A stretch of 59,588 bases of DNA from Patescibacteria group bacterium (GCA_035510605.1 DATKGW010000006.1:1-59588), one strand, 5' to 3'; positions 1,068-54,172 are shown, numbered from the stretch's first letter. Notes: generated by a model not told the origin, from the letters alone. Numbers and translations: made by a program.

Positions 1068-1166
1068 TTTGGCTACTCATCATTATAACTCACTAGTAAA
1101 TATTACCCCTGTTTTGCTATACTAGGCAACGTCGGGGGCGTAGCTCATCGGTTAGAGCAGGCGGCT

Positions 1167-1764
1167 CAAGAAGTTCATTCTAAATTATGCTGCGGATAAT
1201 GTAGTTCCTGAGGGCAATTGCAGCAGACAAGGATACATTTTTGTACCTCCTTATCTATCGATTCTTCCTTCCGATTGGATAAGGCTCGTAAATCGAGCTT
1301 AAACTCCTTTTATTCAGGGTTTCGATGGTGAAAAGCTAGCGTAGACAAATTTTTATTGTAGCCACAAATGGAACATCTTCCTACGTATTTTAGTACAACA
1401 GCACGTTTTCTTTTTAGACCTCTTGATTGTTGAGCTAAATATGATTGGAGATAGTTATTTTGACATTTTGGCGAACAATAAAGTTTCTGTTTACCTCTCA
1501 GTAGTTTCCCGCATTTTACGCAGGTTATGATATTATTCATAACCATTAGCACAACACGAATGATCTTGCAGGGCTACCTGAAAAGTAATTTTCAGGTGAT
1601 AATCTGTCAAATTCGGGGAAGCCTTAAATGGTAATCCCGAGCCAATCTCGCCTTGGCGAGCAGGTGTAGAGACTAAACGGCAGACATCCTTAAGCACAAG
1701 TCGAAGGATGAAGAGATAGTCCAGCTCACAAAGTCGAAAGATGTTGCGAAAGCAATAGTGAGAG
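1167..1764 (+). ncRNA. group I self-splicing intron (IC3-like core) in the anticodon loop
   Basis: The 5' exon ends in U1166 and the intron ends in G1764. Core blocks GUCAAAUUCGGGG (1606-1618), CCCGAGCCAA (1636-1645), GGUGUAGAGACUAAACGGCA (1663-1682) and GAUAGUC (1715-1721) match the Azoarcus/Anabaena pre-tRNA intron core as I recall it. UCUUG 1564-1568 pairs with the first five intron nt, CAAGA 1167-1171. Confidence 0.8.
1175..1552 (-). pseudogene. Zn-ribbon + HNH endonuclease gene, antisense to the intron, interrupted by an in-frame TAA
   Basis: The track ORF 1310..1552 ends ...AFHHRNPE at TAA 1310-1312. The same frame continues KEFKLDLRALSNRKEESIDKEVQKCILVCCNCPQELHY to TGA 1175-1177. It aligns with the intact paralog at 50965-51336 (DFHHDSLEKKDF...KCSVLCANCHRIVHY). 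CxNCH is changed to CNCP. Confidence 0.7.
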
Positions 1765-1902
1765 CATAACCGCTTGGTAGTTGGTTCGATTCCAACCGCC
1801 CCCACCACTTTAAGCATTGCTTAACTTAATCTACATAAAATGTAAGTTTTACTTATGCCTGTAGGTTATGTTAATAATTAACTGGTAAACCAAAATAAAA
1901 AC

Positions 1903-49331: not shown

Positions 49332-50846
49332 ATGGAAGTAATTGCCATCATTTTGGCTGTAGTTGGTATTGGAGCTGGTTTTGGAACCAGCCAAGTTGTT
49401 ATGCGCCGTAAAATCGGCTCGGCAGCAGACGAGGCCGAAAAGCAATTAGCCAAGGCCAATAAGGAGTCCACAGCTATTACTAGAAAGGCTCAGGAAGATG
49501 CTGCCAAAATTGCCGAAGACACGCGCAAAGAAGAACAACAGCATCGTCGTGAATTAAAAGAAACCGAAAGCCGTTTGCTCGACCGGGAAACTTCACTCGA
49601 TCGAAAGCTGGACGACTTGGATAACCGGAGTGAAAAATTACGTAAAAGCGAAGACGAAGTTGAAGAACTTAAGAATGAAATCCGTGAACTTCGCACCAAG
49701 CAGCAGGATAAGTTAGAAAAAGTTGCCAAGCTTACAAAAGCCGAAGCGGCCGACAAACTCATGCAAATGACGGAGCGTGACATAAAAAACGATTTAACAG
49801 GATTAATAGTTAAGTTACAAAGCGATGCCCAGGATTTGGCCGAAGAAACCGCCGGTACGATTATCGTTTCGGCGATGGAACGGATGGCCAGCGAAGTGGC
49901 TGCCGAGCGCACCGTAACTGCCGTTAAGCTCGAAGACGAAGAAATGAAGGGCCGCATAATCGGTAAAGAAGGTCGAAATATCCAGGCCTTACAACGTGCC
50001 ACCGGAGTTGATGTTTTGGTTGATGATACCCCTGGAATGATTGTGCTTTCCAGTTTTGATCCGGTCCGACGCGAGGTTGCCCGGGTGGCGCTGGAGATGC
50101 TGCTTAAAGACGGTCGGGTACATCCCGGACGTATCGAAGAGGTTGTCGAAAAAGCCCAAAAGCAAGTTCAAAAAGAAGTTGTCCAAGCCGGTGAAGACGC
50201 TGCCCGAGAAGTCGGTATCGTAGGAATCCCGCGCGAAATTCTGCAGTATCTGGGCGAGCTAAAATTCCGCACTAGTTATGGCCAAAACGTGCTCAAGCAT
50301 TCTACCGAAATGGCTCATATGGCCGGCATTATCGCCGAAGAATTAGGGGCAGATGTTAGAATCACTAAATATGCCGCCCTGATCCACGATATCGGCAAAG
50401 CCCTTAGCCATAAGATGGAAGGCAAGCATCATGTAATTTCCGGCGAAATGGCTCGTAAATACGGTGTGCCGGAAGAGGTTGCCCATGCCGCTGAAGCTCA
50501 CCACGAAGACATGGAAGCTACAACCGTAGAGGCTTTAATTATTCGGGTTGTAGATGCCATTAGCGCTGCTCGCCCAGGTGCCCGTAACATTAGCAGCGAG
50601 AACTTTGCCGAAAGAATGAAGGAGCTGGAAAACGTAGCCACCGGTTTTGACGGTATCGAAAAGGCTTACGCTATTAGTGCCGGCCGAGAAGTTCGTATTT
50701 TTGTTAAGCCCGGTGAAATCGATGATCTTAGCGCCATAAAGCTAGCCCGAGATATTGCTACCAAGATAGAATCTACCATGCAATACCCCGGCACGATTAA
50801 GGTAAACGTTATCCGTGAAACCCGCGCCATCGAATTCGCCAAGTAG
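49332..50846 (+). CDS. rny: ribonuclease Y
   Basis: N-terminal TM helix, coiled coil, KH motif GRIIGKEGRNIQAL, HD domain LIHDIGKA. Confidence 0.95.
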   Translation: MEVIAIILAVVGIGAGFGTSQVVMRRKIGSAADEAEKQLAKANKESTAITRKAQEDAAKIAEDTRKEEQQHRRELKETESRLLDRETSLDRKLDDLDNRSEKLRKSEDEVEELKNEIRELRTKQQDKLEKVAKLTKAEAADKLMQMTERDIKNDLTGLIVKLQSDAQDLAEETAGTIIVSAMERMASEVAAERTVTAVKLEDEEMKGRIIGKEGRNIQALQRATGVDVLVDDTPGMIVLSSFDPVRREVARVALEMLLKDGRVHPGRIEEVVEKAQKQVQKEVVQAGEDAAREVGIVGIPREILQYLGELKFRTSYGQNVLKHSTEMAHMAGIIAEELGADVRITKYAALIHDIGKALSHKMEGKHHVISGEMARKYGVPEEVAHAAEAHHEDMEATTVEALIIRVVDAISAARPGARNISSENFAERMKELENVATGFDGIEKAYAISAGREVRIFVKPGEIDDLSAIKLARDIATKIESTMQYPGTIKVNVIRETRAIEFAK

Positions 50847-50895
50847 AAAAATATAGCTAATTACCCCTTAATCTGTTACAATTATGCCGTTTTAA

Positions 50896-50928
50896 CGGGG
50901 TGTGGCGCAGTTGGCTAGCGTTTTGGGA
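50896..50928 (+). pseudogene. tRNA-Pro 5' fragment (acceptor and D arm, then an anticodon-loop-like UUUUGGGA)
   Basis: 50896-50920 is identical to the first 25 nt of tRNA-Pro(CGG) at 51860-51884. No 3' half follows. Confidence 0.75.
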
Positions 50929-50964
50929 TATTGCAATGGCACCCAAATCAAATATAATCAAGGA

Positions 50965-51336
50965 ATGCTTAAAACCTGTCGTTATTGTCATAAGCAATAC
51001 CCAGAAACGGACTTTGGTGTAGCGGTGACACTTCCTGAAAAAATATATCGTCGTCAAAAATGCCGATATTGTTACAGGAAAACCAAAAGACTACTAATAG
51101 ATCGTCATCGCAAATGGATTGAAGAATATAAACAATATGAACGTTGCGAAAAATGTGGGATAGCTGACTTTCGAGTGCTAGATTTTCATCATGACAGTCT
51201 TGAGAAAAAAGATTTTAACATATCTGATTTTCGCTACAGGGCAGGCTTTAAGAAACTAAAAGAAGAGGTGAAAAAGTGTTCGGTGCTTTGCGCAAACTGC
51301 CATAGGATTGTACACTACGAAGAGAGCAAGAAGTAA
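50965..51336 (+). CDS. Zn-ribbon + HNH endonuclease (apparently intact)
   Basis: CRYC...CRYC and CEKC...DFHH...N...CANCH motifs. The longer track ORF starts at a GTG inside the tRNA fragment, so the start is uncertain. Confidence 0.75.
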   Translation: MLKTCRYCHKQYPETDFGVAVTLPEKIYRRQKCRYCYRKTKRLLIDRHRKWIEEYKQYERCEKCGIADFRVLDFHHDSLEKKDFNISDFRYRAGFKKLKEEVKKCSVLCANCHRIVHYEESKK

Positions 51337-51349
51337 TACTTAAAAATCT

Positions 51350-51426
51350 CGGGGATTGGCGCAGTTGGCTAGCGCGCGCGCTTTGGGAGCGCGAGGTCGG
51401 AGGTTCGAGTCCTCTATCCCCGACCA
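51350..51426 (+). tRNA. tRNA-Pro(UGG)
   Basis: CGGGGAU UG GCGC AGUUGGCUA GCGC G CGCGC UUUGGGA GCGCG AGGUC GGAGG UUCGAGU CCUCU AUCCCCG A CCA. Confidence 0.9.
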
Positions 51427-51445
51427 CGTCGCAATAAACTAAAAC

Positions 51446-51473
51446 GCTCTGCAATCCAAAAGCAGAGCTTTTT
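51446..51473 (+). terminator. intrinsic terminator after tRNA-Pro(UGG)
   Basis: GCTCTGC pairs with GCAGAGC, followed by TTTTT. Confidence 0.65.
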
Positions 51474-51505
51474 AGTTGTTATGAGCTTACCGTTATTGTT
51501 TCTTT

Positions 51506-51543
51506 AAACTACTTAAACAGCTAAAGCTTGGTTTAAGTAGTTT
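51506..51543 (+). repeat. conserved hairpin motif, copy 1
   Basis: AAACTACTTAAAC-AGCTAAAGCTTG-GTTTAAGTAGTTT: a 13-bp stem and a T-run. Homologous to 52846-52883, with compensatory changes. Confidence 0.6.
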
Positions 51544-51605
51544 TGTTAAATTGCGGAGCTTGTCTCCGGTCTTTTTACGCTGTCAATTTGTGATATATTA
51601 CAGGC

Positions 51606-51818
51606 ATGAATACAATTTCAATCAACACGAGTTTGGCAGTCGCAATAGCCGCTGCCTTAATATTAGATCTAATATTAAGAGGCTTCGCTCTTTGGCGGGC
51701 CGCACATCGAAATGACAATGTGTGGTTTATTGTCTTATTGGTGGTCAACACCGTAGGCATATTGCCATTAATTTACTTGCTATTCTTTTCCAAACCACAA
51801 AAGAAATCAGCAAAATAA
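51606..51818 (+). CDS. small 2-TM membrane protein (DUF5652-like)
   Basis: LRGFALWRAAHRNDNVWFIVLLVVNTVGILPLIYLLFF. TGaTATATT lies 6 nt upstream of the ATG. Confidence 0.5.
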   Translation: MNTISINTSLAVAIAAALILDLILRGFALWRAAHRNDNVWFIVLLVVNTVGILPLIYLLFFSKPQKKSAK

Positions 51819-51859
51819 TCTAGTTTATTAGTACAATAAAGTATATCTGCATCCAATAA

Positions 51860-51936
51860 CGGGGTGTGGCGCAGTTGGCTAGCGCGCAGCGTTCGGGACG
51901 CTGAGGCCGGAGGTTCGAGTCCTCTCACCCCGACCA
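51860..51936 (+). tRNA. tRNA-Pro(CGG)
   Basis: CGGGGUG UG GCGC AGUUGGCUA GCGC G CAGCG UUCGGGA CGCUG AGGCC GGAGG UUCGAGU CCUCU CACCCCG A CCA. Confidence 0.9.
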
Positions 51937-51966
51937 TGTTTGCAGATTAGAGTATAATAATTACCT

Positions 51967-52656
51967 ATGAATGGAATGCTGTTCGCAGCATCAGGCACAG
52001 CCGCTCTACTACTTATAGGCGAATGGTTGTGGCGAAAAAAAATAACCAAAGGTGAAATAGCCCGTAAGTTTGTTCATATTACTGCGGCAACTTTCGCAGC
52101 TTTTTGGCCTTTGTTTATGAACCGTAATGACATCGTAATTCTAAGCCTTTTATTTGTTGCCGCACTTGTCGTTATCAAAAAATTACATATATTTAATTCG
52201 CTACACAGCGTACAGCGGGCAACTTACGGCGAGATATGGTATGCCATAAGTATAGGTGTAATCGCACTAGTGTTTAAGGATGATGTGATTTATGCCATTG
52301 CCATTTTGCATCTGGCTTTGGCAGATGGTTTTGCAGCAGTGATTGGGGCAGGATTAGCTAAAAGGGCCAGGAATTTTAGATTCAGAGGTTGCCGAAAAAG
52401 CATTGCCGGTACGCTTACTTTTTTAATAATTTCATTTGCGCTGAATTTAAGCTACTGGGCATTTGCTACTCACTATCCAATAAATAATAGTGGTATATAT
52501 TTATCACCTATTTTGTATAGTTTGTTATCTGCCGCCCTGCTGGCCGGTACGGAAATATCTGCGCCAAAGGGCAGTGATAATGTTATAGTGCCGCTACTGG
52601 CCGGTGGATTGCTGTGGATACCCACAGTTCTATTGGCTGCTAATGTAATTTTTTAG
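51967..52656 (+). CDS. polytopic membrane protein, CTP-dependent polyprenol/diacylglycerol kinase (dolichol kinase/CDS-like) family
   Basis: About 7 TM helices. KFVHITAATFA, YGEIWYAISIG, LADGFAAVIG...KSIAGTLTF. Confidence 0.4.
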   Translation: MNGMLFAASGTAALLLIGEWLWRKKITKGEIARKFVHITAATFAAFWPLFMNRNDIVILSLLFVAALVVIKKLHIFNSLHSVQRATYGEIWYAISIGVIALVFKDDVIYAIAILHLALADGFAAVIGAGLAKRARNFRFRGCRKSIAGTLTFLIISFALNLSYWAFATHYPINNSGIYLSPILYSLLSAALLAGTEISAPKGSDNVIVPLLAGGLLWIPTVLLAANVIF

Positions 52657-52694
52657 ATAAAATAATCGACCAATCAATAGTCGATTATTTTATT

Positions 52695-52772
52695 TGGGGC
52701 GAGCGATGAGGCTTGAACTCACGACCTCCTATTCCACAGATAGGCGCTCTGACCAACTGAGCTACGCCCGCC
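52695..52772 (-). tRNA. tRNA-His(GUG) with encoded G-1
   Basis: G GCGGGCG UA GCUC AGUUGGUCA GAGC G CCUAU CUGUGGA AUAGG AGGUC GUGAG UUCAAGC CUCAU CGCUCGC C CCA. Confidence 0.9.
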
Positions 52773-52845
52773 TTGTTGACGTTCACTATCGGCTAACGCA
52801 AGTTCGGTAAACTCTCTTGCTTACGCCTTTCGCTACGTCTTCTCT

Positions 52846-52883
52846 AAATCAATTAAACAACTAAAGTTTGGTTTAATTGATTT
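52846..52883 (+). repeat. conserved hairpin motif, copy 2
   Basis: AAATCAATTAAAC-AACTAAAGTTTG-GTTTAATTGATTT. Three stem pairs and one inner pair differ from copy 1 by double compensatory substitutions. Confidence 0.6.
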
Positions 52884-52907
52884 TATACACTGTTTTAGCA
52901 AAAGCTA

Positions 52908-52924
52908 TAACAGGGGTAATTATA
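52908..52924 (-). promoter_or_regulatory. TATAAT plus CCCC-discriminator motif (probable promoter of the tRNA-His transcript)
   Basis: The minus strand reads TATAATTACCCCTGTTA, matching 16 of 17 positions of the motif directly upstream of tRNA-Gly. Confidence 0.4.
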
Positions 52925-52943
52925 CTTGGTCATTATCGAAAAC

Positions 52944-52985
52944 TCAACCAAATGAAGTGGTACCCCGGGAAGGACTCGAACCTAC
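52944..52985 (-). repeat. displaced tRNA-Arg-like 3' fragment plus trailer (direct repeat of 53351-53392)
   Basis: The minus strand reads GTAGGTTCGAGTCCTTCCCGGGGTACCA followed by CTTCATTTGGTTGA. About 35 of 43 aligned positions match the T arm, acceptor, CCA and trailer of tRNA-Arg(UCU). Confidence 0.7.
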
Positions 52986-53323
52986 ACTACTATTATTTGT
53001 CACTAATCTATTGAAAGATCGTATTCGGTGACAATTAGAACAAACGACTTCACACTTAGCTATCTCACGATTTAAAGCATCCTTATTATACCTTCGTACA
53101 AATTCATTAATTAGACCCTCTTTATTATCCAGATGATCAAAGTCCATCACATAATGTGGGTATAGTTTTCCGCAATCGGTACACGGAGTTGACTCTTTTA
53201 TCTGCGACACATAGTGTCGCAATTTAGCTCTATTGATTCTATTTCTGTCTAAGTATCGCTACTTATTTTCTCTGTAATGTTTTTGCTGAACTCTAATTGT
53301 TTATTATGGTCTTTATAAGGCAT
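52944..53323 (-). pseudogene. HNH endonuclease paralog, frameshifted near its 5' end and read through into the tRNA fragment at its 3' end
   Basis: ATG 53323 gives MPYKDHNKQLEFSKNITEKISSDT then a stop. A shifted frame continues RYLDRNRINRAKLRHYV...CTDCG...DFDHLDN...CSNCHRIRS (the track ORF 52944..53222 starts at a TTG). The HNH motifs are intact. Confidence 0.65.
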
Positions 53324-53364
53324 AATTGGATTATAACAACAAATAGTAGTTCAAACCAATAAAG

Positions 53365-53441
53365 TGGTGCCCCGAGCAGGATTCGAACCTGCGACCTTGA
53401 GCTTAGAAGTCTCCTGCTCTATCCAGCTGAGCTATCGGGGC
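53365..53441 (-). tRNA. tRNA-Arg(UCU)
   Basis: GCCCCGA UA GCUC AGCUGGAUA GAGC A GGAGA CUUCUAA GCUCA AGGUC GCAGG UUCGAAU CCUGC UCGGGGC A CCA. The anticodon stem has mismatches at both ends (27-43 and 31-39). Confidence 0.8.
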
Positions 53442-53452
53442 TTACTATGACG

Positions 53453-53527
53453 TGGTGCGGGTGGGGAGAGTCGAACTCCCGTTTTCAACTTGGAAGGCTG
53501 ACATAATAGCCGTTATACGACACCCGC
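53453..53527 (-). tRNA. tRNA-Gly(UCC)
   Basis: GCGGGUG UCGUAUAACGGCUAUUAUG UCAGC CUUCCAA GUUGA AAAC GGGAG UUCGACU CUCCC CACCCGC A CCA. Very similar to E. coli tRNA-Gly(UCC). Confidence 0.88.
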
Positions 53528-53547
53528 TAACAGGGGCAATTATATCA
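53528..53547 (-). promoter_or_regulatory. extended -10 promoter with C-rich discriminator for the tRNA-Gly/tRNA-Arg transcript
   Basis: The minus strand reads TGaTATAATTGCCCCTGTTA, ending 1 nt before tRNA-Gly position 1. Confidence 0.5.
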
Positions 53548-53560
53548 CAATAAGGTGTAA

Positions 53561-54172
53561 TTATTCTTGTTCAACACTGAATATTCTGGGTTTTAGCATG
53601 ATTACCCTAAACAACAACGCAAATGAATATATGCAAATTGTATATAGGATGACAGACATTACAAGCCACAACCACGATGAAGGACTTTTTAAGGTAGTGA
53701 CAGATACAAAAAAATGTCTAGTAAGACTGATGTTAATAGACTTAATAAAAACAATTGTCCAAAAAATTAAACCAAAAATGCCAACTATCCGGACAGCAAT
53801 CTTTGTTAAAAAGGCGTTAATTTCATGTATTCGGCTACTGGGATTTTGATAATAATGGATTAATTCGACTTCGTCATCGGCACTTTTTATAGTTGCAATC
53901 ATGACCGAGACTAAGACGAACACTACACAGCCGATTATTATCCAAACAAAAAAATCAATGACATGAGGATTTATTTTATCCAGATTATTTTTAATAAACC
54001 TGCTAAATAAATTATCGGTGCCTTCGATATTATTTACCCAGTTCAACGTATTACCGGATGCTAACAACCAAAATCTTTTTGCGTTTAGCGCAATCAAAAC
54101 AAACAAACCAAGCGCTGTAAATAATATGATTTCAATCCAGCTTGGTACCAATAATTTATAATATTGTTTCAT
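53561..54172 (-). CDS. membrane protein (about 5 TM)
   Basis: Hydrophobic ORF. No domain recognised. Confidence 0.45.
   Translation of the reverse strand: MKQYYKLLVPSWIEIILFTALGLFVLIALNAKRFWLLASGNTLNWVNNIEGTDNLFSRFIKNNLDKINPHVIDFFVWIIIGCVVFVLVSVMIATIKSADDEVELIHYYQNPSSRIHEINAFLTKIAVRIVGIFGLIFWTIVFIKSINISLTRHFFVSVTTLKSPSSWLWLVMSVILYTICIYSFALLFRVIMLKPRIFSVEQE

Follow-up and report, generated by a model that had tools for sequence, protein, structure and literature searches.

A tRNA-associated family of small HNH genes in a Patescibacteria genome: probable homing endonucleases in intron-borne and free-standing forms

The 59,588-nucleotide (nt) stretch of DNA from a Patescibacteria group bacterium analysed here (GCA_035510605.1, DATKGW010000006.1:1-59588; hereafter the window) carries three small genes, copies A, B and C, each of which lies within or beside a tRNA gene. 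On profile and residue evidence the three belong to one HNH (His-Me finger) family, and they are probably homing endonuclease genes of a family specialised on tRNA genes that exists in both intron-borne and free-standing forms. An earlier note, made from the sequence alone, had described three paralogs at 1175-1552, 50965-51336 and 52944-53323 with the shared motifs CxxC, (D)FHH or DFDH, and KCxxxCxNC(H), and had placed copy A in the intron of tRNA-Ile2, copy B between a tRNA-Pro fragment and an intact tRNA-Pro(UGG) gene, and copy C between tRNA-Arg(UCU) and a partial 3′ copy of it; our analysis bears out both the genes and their tRNA context. Copies A and C are pseudogenes, and copy B, judged by its sequence, is probably active, being the only one of the three likely to be so.

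Identity of the family

All three proteins matched the curated PHROG 2255/3106 'HNH endonuclease' families with E-values of 1e-18 to 1e-27 and near whole-protein coverage (copy B against PHROG 2255: E=2.5e-27), and the pattern of a catalytic histidine with two CxxC pairs was likewise found. Across 24 sequences C61, C64, H76, C109, N111 and C112 are invariant and H75, H113 and H117 nearly so; copy B retains all of the conserved catalytic and zinc residues in an intact open reading frame (ORF). Scanned directly against Pfam and NCBIfam, A, B and C gave no useful matches, while 12 of 24 relatives matched PF01844 below its gathering score (best E 7.6e-4) and PF18780, the homing endonuclease associated repeat, was found in one haloarchaeal relative tested (L008; loci of relatives compared with the window are given L-numbers). 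An AlphaFold2 model of copy B (pLDDT 92.6) predicts a zinc ribbon and a long helix, with a C-terminal module of strand-strand-helix form (strands 72-76 and 105-109, helix 110-122); full-length Foldseek comparison of this model with the PDB returned weak matches only, to Hpy99I (E=0.13) and Cap5 (E=0.5), and a PDB profile search gave McrA at a weak E=0.07. The family comprises 47,414 clusters (50% identity) at E<=1e-3 and 19,953 at E<=1e-10, and 192 homologs of copy B were found. All of its cellular members carry the name 'hypothetical protein' and lack a precomputed Pfam domain, and literature searches retrieved no published account of this family or of HNH genes in tRNA introns.

Linkage to tRNA genes across relatives

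Genome loci were represented by the best 80 relatives, one genome per species, from at least 531 confirmed overall. Twenty-five of these loci lie inside a tRNA gene, within an anticodon-loop insert of 460-620 nt, and 43 lie at most 200 nt from an intact tRNA gene, while 12, some at contig ends, have no tRNA nearby; 68 of 80 are therefore inside or within 200 nt of a tRNA gene as compared to about 1-4% by chance, a rough estimate from typical tRNA densities. Tabulation of the neighbours, which the earlier note had proposed as a check, thus ties the family to tRNA genes far beyond chance. In 16 of the 18 inserts tested, the ORF is followed directly on its 3′ side by a group I core (Rfam RF00028), which was absent at gathering score from 19 of 20 further loci (18 free-standing loci plus L038 and L055). 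At the one remaining locus, L072, tRNA(CAU) contains an ORF-less intron upstream of a free-standing HNH copy, an arrangement that recalls collaborative homing between an intron with no ORF and a free-standing endonuclease nearby. No group I remnants were detected near copies B and C in a permissive Rfam scan of 50700-53700.

In a simple neighbour-joining tree of about 110 columns, calculated with no support values, clades track tRNA identity and not host taxonomy, with phyla and domains mixed within tRNA-specific clades. The Pro(UGG) clade, which includes copy B, spans Candidate Phyla Radiation (CPR) bacteria and Armatimonadota; the Gln(CUG) clade unites haloarchaea with one Patescibacteria genome; and the Thr(GGU) clade comprises Acidobacteria and Fimbriimonadales. 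The Asn(GUU) intron clade, in which the tRNA is split after U35, covers about ten bacterial phyla and two DPANN archaeal metagenome-assembled genomes (MAGs), and places, for example, Falkowbacteria with Gammaproteobacteria and DPANN archaea. Residence in an intron or directly beside a target gene and disagreement between gene tree and host, the latter being a comparison that the earlier note had also called for, are both marks of homing endonuclease genes.

Among viral sequences in IMG/VR at least 529 relatives were found, and 20 of the best 80 lie at most 200 nt from a tRNA gene, several of them in phage tRNA arrays; the viral contigs closest to copy B adjoin tRNA-Pro(UGG). T5-like phages carry an unannotated B-like ORF between tRNA-Lys and tRNA-Ala, which only five phage records have.

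Several observations on individual relatives may be added. ARAGORN labelled many of the intron-containing tRNAs 'Thr(UGU/CGU)', a label set aside when the group I splice rule re-read them as Asn(GUU). A sense-strand HNH ORF occupies the 5′ end of the Asn(GUU) introns of L020, L027, L032, L035, L043, L049, L058, L059, L061, L062, L065, L066, L069, L070, L074, L078 and others; some tRNA-Asn introns have a plausible P1 overlapping the ORF start, and at the Nitrospira Asn(GUU) loci the start codon of the ORF and a candidate internal guide sequence overlap. Two archaeal MAGs carry tRNA-Asn(GUU) group I introns, namely a Woesearchaeota MAG (L047, 4023-4606; RF00028 at 97 bits, with the HNH ORF inside) and a Nanoarchaeota MAG (L067, 982-1279), contamination being possible in both. 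A 2018 survey (PMC6125680) recorded archaeal group I introns from rRNA genes alone. Haloarchaeal relatives (L008, L016, L025, L033, L041, L075 and others, from at least nine genera) are located 60-149 nt upstream of tRNA-Gln(CUG), and the longer of these, of about 260-290 amino acids (aa), such as L008 and L016, contain two tandem HNH modules. In a gammaproteobacterial MAG (L015, 1892-2371) a GOLLD RNA (192 bits) lies beside a tRNA array and a member of the HNH family, in a region that is probably a prophage.

Copy A and its group I intron

ARAGORN detects eight tRNA genes in the window, six of them between 51350 and 53527, and a ninth, split tRNA at 1134-1807 once introns are allowed. The features of this locus are:

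1134..1166 (+), 5′ exon of tRNA(CAU) (ARAGORN with introns allowed; the spliced product folds as a canonical class I tRNA)
1167..1764 (+), group I intron of 598 nt inserted after U33, core at 1557-1746 (Rfam RF00028; exon-end U and intron-end G restore the tRNA)
1175..1552 (-), copy A, pseudogene of an HNH homing endonuclease on the strand opposite to the intron (translation; PHROG 2255, E=2.5e-18)
1765..1807 (+), 3′ exon of tRNA(CAU) (ARAGORN; exon joining)

The insert is placed in group I by both its conserved catalytic core and its boundaries. RF00028 was matched on the plus strand at 73.8 bits, as compared to a gathering score of 50, over model positions 1-253; splicing at 1166/1167 and 1764/1765 agrees with the group I rule of an exon ending in U and an intron ending in G, and the joined exons give a canonical 76-nt class I tRNA with the anticodon CAU. 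No convincing P1 pairing was apparent by eye. The split tRNA is likely to be tRNA-Ile2, which we assume from its resemblance to E. coli ileX; the ARAGORN label tRNA-Leu(CAA) was ruled out by the short variable arm.

Copy A is encoded on the strand opposite to its host tRNA and is a pseudogene, as a TAA at 1310-1312 interrupts the ORF in frame and NCP stands where NCH is conserved, with loss of the catalytic histidine. Its closest relatives form the intron-borne clade, which it adjoins in the tree, and copy A is a classical intron-encoded homing endonuclease gene. Decay of the ORF within an apparently intact intron fits the homing life cycle, of which copy A may represent a decaying stage of the intron-borne form. 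In two Bacteroidetes loci (L038, 3651-4308; L055, 3678-4348) inserts of about 590 nt split an apparent tRNA-Arg(UCU) after U34 and contain an antisense HNH ORF, as does copy A, with no RF00028 match at gathering score.

Group I introns in bacterial tRNA genes include those of Azoarcus tRNA-Ile(CAU), Agrobacterium tRNA-Arg, cyanobacterial tRNA-Leu(UAA) and tRNA-fMet, the last with I-Ssp6803I. The Azoarcus intron resembles that of copy A in interrupting the anticodon loop of a CAU tRNA; most known bacterial tRNA introns, however, have no ORF, and I-Ssp6803I is a PD-(D/E)XK enzyme, whereas the copy A intron holds an HNH ORF. I-HmuI and I-TwoI are intron-encoded HNH homing endonucleases of phage group I introns, and the family of copy A is like them in having an HNH ORF within an intron, the ribozyme core of the relatives lying 3′ of the ORF. 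It differs in that the host gene is a tRNA gene and not a protein-coding or rRNA gene, and in that copy A is antisense. We know of no characterised HNH enzyme from a tRNA intron.

The tRNA-Pro locus of copy B

Copy B, the intact member of the family, is surrounded by the following features:

50893..50920 (+), tRNA-Pro gene remnant (3 nt of flank plus tRNA positions 1-25) with a promoter-like stretch before it (28/28 identity to 51857-51884)
50921..50948 (no strand), palindrome TTTTGGGA-N12-ACCCAAAT, left edge of the copy B cassette, just upstream of the -10 box (same arms in relatives)
50931..50958 (+), promoter-like site TTGCAA-16-TATAAT ending 6 nt before the copy B ATG (consensus scan, 10/12)
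50965..51336 (+), copy B, intact gene for a zinc-ribbon and HNH endonuclease of 123 aa (homologs, PHROG 2255, structural model, ratio of nonsynonymous to synonymous substitution rates, dN/dS)
51350..51426 (+), tRNA-Pro(UGG), beginning 13 nt after the copy B stop codon (tRNA scan; identical in L081 and L093)
51860..51936 (+), tRNA-Pro(CGG); its 5′ end is matched by the fragment that precedes copy B (tRNA scan and repeat comparison)

In gene calls copy B (50902-51336, protein P0001) is lengthened to 144 aa by a start at a GTG that lies in the tRNA fragment, and many of its homologs are called as running on into the downstream tRNA-Pro, ending in ...GIGAVG or ...RGVAQLASA; the extension and the read-ons are annotation artefacts which betray the tRNA neighbour. 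In the close relatives L175-L178 the order is rny, a spacer of about 65 nt, the HNH gene and tRNA-Pro(UGG), and in L081 it is rny, ymdB, tRNA-Pro(UGG), the HNH gene and tRNA-Pro(CGG).

L175 and L177-L181 likewise have a TATAAT box 6-8 nt ahead of their start codons. With promoter-like sequence ending just 6 nt from the copy B ATG, a leaderless mRNA is suggested, and the same is suggested for the HNH genes of clades B and C generally, where TATAAT stands 6-8 nt 5′ of the start (window 50953-50958 and, on the minus strand, 53334-53339) and no Shine-Dalgarno sequence is seen. Given this promoter and a tRNA gene that begins 13 nt after the stop codon, copy B probably supplies the promoter for tRNA-Pro(UGG), the tRNA being transcribed through the endonuclease gene.

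The arms of the palindrome are the same in L081, L175/L176, L177 and L003, and TTTGGGA or its complement also occurs in L001, L002 and L005. The conserved block of the relatives opens exactly at the palindrome (TTTTGGGA-N12-14-TCCCAAA), which is followed by TATAAT and then by the start codon. Its predicted folding is modest (z -1 to -2.4) and the arms are conserved without covariation; given this weak stability, and a position beside the -10 box, the palindrome looks like a protein-binding site, for which it is put forward as a candidate. Autoregulation through it, of the kind known for I-TevI, which autoregulates, would be a guess by analogy. The TTTGGGA arm is also the anticodon-loop sequence of tRNA-Pro(UGG), and several readings of the palindrome were considered and rejected. 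An RNA hairpin was discarded on account of the weak stability, the lack of covariation and a location upstream of the -10 box. A fossil P1 of a lost tRNA-Pro intron was discarded as the 5′ arm represents the uninterrupted loop sequence, unlike an exon-intron junction. That the TTTGGGA following the copy B fragment is that fragment's own anticodon loop was discarded as in L081, L175 and L177 the same motif is a palindrome arm unconnected to any tRNA fragment. A general rule by which the upstream region mimics the anticodon loop of the neighbouring tRNA failed, as just 5 of 36 loci conformed to it, four of these belonging to the tRNA-Pro clade.

Mobility versus stable inheritance

According to the homing explanation, the enzyme would cut an allele that lacks the endonuclease gene, at or beside the tRNA gene, and repair would copy the gene from the filled allele with the conserved tRNA sequence as a homology arm. 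Empty sites, for which the earlier note had advised a search, were found in part. In L002 tRNA-Arg(UCU) and tRNA-His are 12 nt apart with no copy C, which by comparison of the loci is an empty site for C, and L093, where an identical tRNA-Pro(UGG) is preceded by a TATAAT-bearing, stop-codon-filled stretch in place of an HNH gene, is probably an empty site for B; on the other side, copy B is syntenic in every close relative with enough flank. The cassette lies 5′ of tRNA-Pro(UGG) in the window, L175 and L177, and 5′ of tRNA-Pro(CGG) in L081. Taken together the sequence evidence for mobility is suggestive but thin.

A number of points weigh against the homing explanation. The empty-site evidence is thin, L093 having just 56 nt upstream of its tRNA, and the tree is a thin basis as well, being simple neighbour-joining on few columns. 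Linkage to tRNA genes is not universal, as no tRNA lies within 3 kb of 58 among the best 80 viral relatives. The rny-HNH-tRNA-Pro locus is kept across relatives whose synonymous sites are saturated, with a dN/dS of 0.06-0.10, and in this respect the HNH gene of the B locus resembles a functional gene under stable inheritance more than it does a transient parasite. Lastly, the tRNA-Pro(UGG) of L093 is identical to the HNH-linked one, and a target wholly inside the tRNA would not explain self-immunity. As the same tRNA exists with and without the gene, the target probably would not be confined to the tRNA and would span the upstream flank and the 5′ end of the tRNA gene.

Copy B is under strong purifying selection, as established by dN/dS against its syntenic relatives with dS saturated. 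It may be asked whether copy B and its tRNA-Pro relatives are domesticated, serving the host or the tRNA locus, for instance as a DNA-binding regulator of the tRNA-Pro operon acting via the palindrome or in another nucleic-acid role, and being kept by host selection. That selection, together with the conserved position between rny and tRNA-Pro, a tRNA that begins 0-14 nt after the stop codon and seems to depend on the HNH promoter, the conservation of TTTGGGA...TCCCAAA beside the -10 box, and the fixed spot of haloarchaeal relatives upstream of tRNA-Gln(CUG) in at least nine genera, speaks for such a role. However, 25 of 80 loci of the family are intron-borne and its members abound in phage contigs, both of which mark it as a family of homing endonucleases; catalytic residues are retained in copy B; the cassette stands beside different tRNA-Pro isoacceptors in close relatives; an identical tRNA-Pro without an HNH gene exists; and purifying selection would also be expected with continuing homing. 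We regard domestication as unlikely.

A broader possibility, which we put forward only tentatively, is an undescribed HNH system that crosses domains, each clade being dedicated to one tRNA gene; it would take in the endonuclease-bearing group I introns of tRNA-Asn(GUU) from about ten bacterial phyla and DPANN archaea, and within it the CPR tRNA-Pro clade may have become semi-permanent by capturing transcription of an essential tRNA and might regulate itself via the palindrome. If this were true, it would constitute an 'addictive' homing endonuclease which the host cannot delete, as the gene would supply the promoter for a tRNA 0-14 nt after its stop codon.

The copy C locus

Copy C, on the minus strand, was resolved into the following features:

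52944..52990 (-), decayed copy of the tRNA-Arg(UCU) 3′ portion and the spacer downstream of it, overlapping with the run-on C-terminal end of copy C (repeat alignment)
52944..53323 (-), copy C, frameshifted HNH pseudogene of the MPYKD subfamily (three-frame translation; PHROG 3106, E=1e-21)
53365..53441 (-), tRNA-Arg(UCU), 41 nt upstream of copy C (tRNA scan; identical to L180)

Translation from 53323 gives MPYKDHNKQ... in one frame, and the HNH core is found in a different frame. Intact relatives of about 110 aa (60-75% identity) span the repaired copy C end to end; copy C is a frameshifted pseudogene of a subfamily that has no N-terminal zinc ribbon. It has DH instead of HH, H117 is absent, and in the tree it clusters with copies beside tRNA(CAU). 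In its relative L180, tRNA-Gly and tRNA-Arg are accompanied by the same promoter spacer of 40 nt and by an intact HNH gene. Copy C may be viewed as a decaying free-standing copy, as copy A would be of the intron-borne form.

Partial tRNA copies

The tRNA fragments beside copies B and C are real. The earlier note had allowed that they could be assembly artefacts, a possibility now excluded, since the B junction appears at 99.5% identity in two independent metagenome contigs and two more carry B and C together. The fragment at copy B (50893-50920) agrees in 28 of 28 positions with 51857-51884, where tRNA-Pro(CGG) has its 5′ end, and shows 86% identity to tRNA-Pro(UGG); only tRNA positions 1-25 are kept, fused to the palindrome whose left arm is TTTGGGA. 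Upstream of it lies a stretch resembling the promoter region of the full tRNA-Pro in L081, and the fragment is best read, from this comparison, as a resident tRNA-Pro gene that lost positions 26 onward. At copy C, positions 52944-52983 show 83% identity over 40 nt to 53351-53390, that is, to the 3′ part of tRNA-Arg and 14 nt downstream; tRNA-Arg(UCU) was the best match among 165 tRNAs, and a gapped alignment reaches weakly into the spacer. A repeat scan of the 2.85-kb region revealed no further tRNA fragments.

The earlier note saw in a regenerated tRNA gene with a displaced partial copy the recurring signature of the element, and this generalisation did not survive comparison with relatives. 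No tRNA fragment is present beside the HNH gene in L175, L176, L177 and L178, which are syntenic with B, or in L180 for C, and when each neighbouring tRNA was aligned locally to the far side of the ORF across the family, scores were at background in most loci, the high scores being mostly cross-matches between two intact tRNAs. On this comparison the fragments are peculiar to this lineage and are not a built-in feature of the element.

These observations bear directly on the proposal that a minimal cassette inserts into a tRNA gene, brings a replacement segment and leaves the displaced one behind, and so constitutes a distinct class of element. Such a cassette would account for the presence of a partial tRNA next to both B and C, opposite the intact tRNA, and for the conserved left edge of the relatives being the palindrome exactly where the fragment ends; L004 also has a 12-nt echo of the tRNA-Pro 5′ end upstream, and L013 an intact tRNA(CAU), the HNH gene and a 26-nt partial tRNA copy. 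Against this stand the five fragment-free relatives named above, the background scores of most tRNA-adjacent loci tested, the promoter-like sequence upstream of the B fragment, homologous to that of the full tRNA-Pro of L081, which gives it the look of a deleted resident gene, and the 83% identity of the decayed C repeat. A distinct class of this kind appears to us improbable.

Slightly less probable still is that the fragments have no relation to the endonuclease and reflect ordinary decay of tandem tRNA duplications, the HNH genes merely sharing the intergenic space. The packing of six tRNA genes and other small repeats into 2.7 kb of the region, and the absence of fragments from relatives with HNH genes, would agree with this; but both fragments abut the HNH cassette exactly (B at the palindrome, C beneath the run-on C-terminus), the 2.85-kb region showed no tRNA fragments besides these, and a nuclease that cuts near tRNA genes would be a ready source of rearrangements. 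With the homing explanation, the fragments could be by-products of break repair or of rearrangement among similar tRNA sequences, arising by one-sided homology, by ectopic repair between tRNA-Pro paralogs or by deletion within a tRNA-HNH-tRNA sandwich.

Islands and prophages inserted by tRNA-targeting integrases resemble the B and C loci in that inserted DNA is flanked by an intact tRNA gene and a displaced partial copy. They differ in that no recombinase was seen here among the ORFs examined, the inserts of about 0.45 kb holding the HNH ORF alone, and in that the repeats are not near-identical att sites derived from a tRNA 3′ end: the C repeat is 83% identical, and the B repeat is a 25-nt piece of the tRNA 5′ end, whereas integrases usually target the 3′ end. 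An integrase-type island was ruled out on these grounds, and an insertion sequence or miniature inverted-repeat transposable element was ruled out as well, the repeat scan having found no terminal inverted repeats bracketing B or C. The statement of the earlier note that the window has no integrase or transposase was upheld for the ORFs examined, which makes for a partial check: no recombinase-like ORF was seen among 55 judged by eye on their first 50 residues, 10 of which were also scanned against Pfam, five giving no match. The nuclease is the sole visible mobility function, as had been proposed.

Relation to known systems

It had also been suggested that these genes fall outside the usual island, insertion sequence or intron categories. 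This view is not supported, as copy A is of the intron-encoded type, B and C are of the free-standing type, and all match phage HNH families; homing endonuclease genes, whether intron-borne or free-standing, are an already known category, and the categories of mobile elements are unchanged. T4 SegB and the T5 enzymes F-TflI, -II and -IV, from phage tRNA clusters, are similar to B and C in being encoded by a small free-standing endonuclease gene in a spacer beside tRNA genes, the likeness to the T5 enzymes being one of gene position. SegB has been shown to drive preferential inheritance of a tRNA region, and its expression is thought to be tied to processing of the tRNA transcript (PMC2330249). 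SegB is, however, a GIY-YIG enzyme and thus of a different nuclease family, while B and C reside in a cellular CPR chromosome and not in a phage, and copy B, unlike the genes of phage tRNA clusters, is stably syntenic and under strong purifying selection. The profiles of the PHROG 2255/3106 families are matched directly by A, B and C, and the annotation of these families is silent on linkage to tRNA genes.

The same nuclease family is thus seen riding in introns, next to an ORF-less intron and standing free beside intact tRNAs, in bacteria, archaea and phages. A 'hypothetical protein' of about 120 aa in many CPR and other genomes gains a likely role, and confusing tRNA annotation, in the form of split tRNAs, tRNA fragments and ORFs running into tRNA genes, is explained. 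The pattern of the family represents a clean natural data set on how homing endonucleases choose and keep their targets; its tracking of tRNA identity and the possible capture of a promoter function are interesting extras, and if copy B truly drives transcription of tRNA-Pro(UGG), this would be a route by which a selfish gene becomes hard to lose.

Other features of the window

A hairpin element of 38 nt is present in two copies, at 51506-51543 after tRNA-Pro(UGG) and at 52846-52883 in the tRNA-His leader, where chance would lead one to expect zero matches. The stems are AAACTACTTAAAC...GTTTAAGTAGTTT and AAATCAATTAAAC...GTTTAATTGATTT, respectively, and the differences between them are compensatory. 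The motif TATAAT-TACCCCTGTT is repeated at 52909-52924 (-), 53529-53544 (-) and 1098-1113 (+), preceding tRNA-His, tRNA-Gly/Arg and the split tRNA(CAU), and from this placement is probably a local tRNA promoter and start region; similar motifs precede the HNH genes of L178 and L179.

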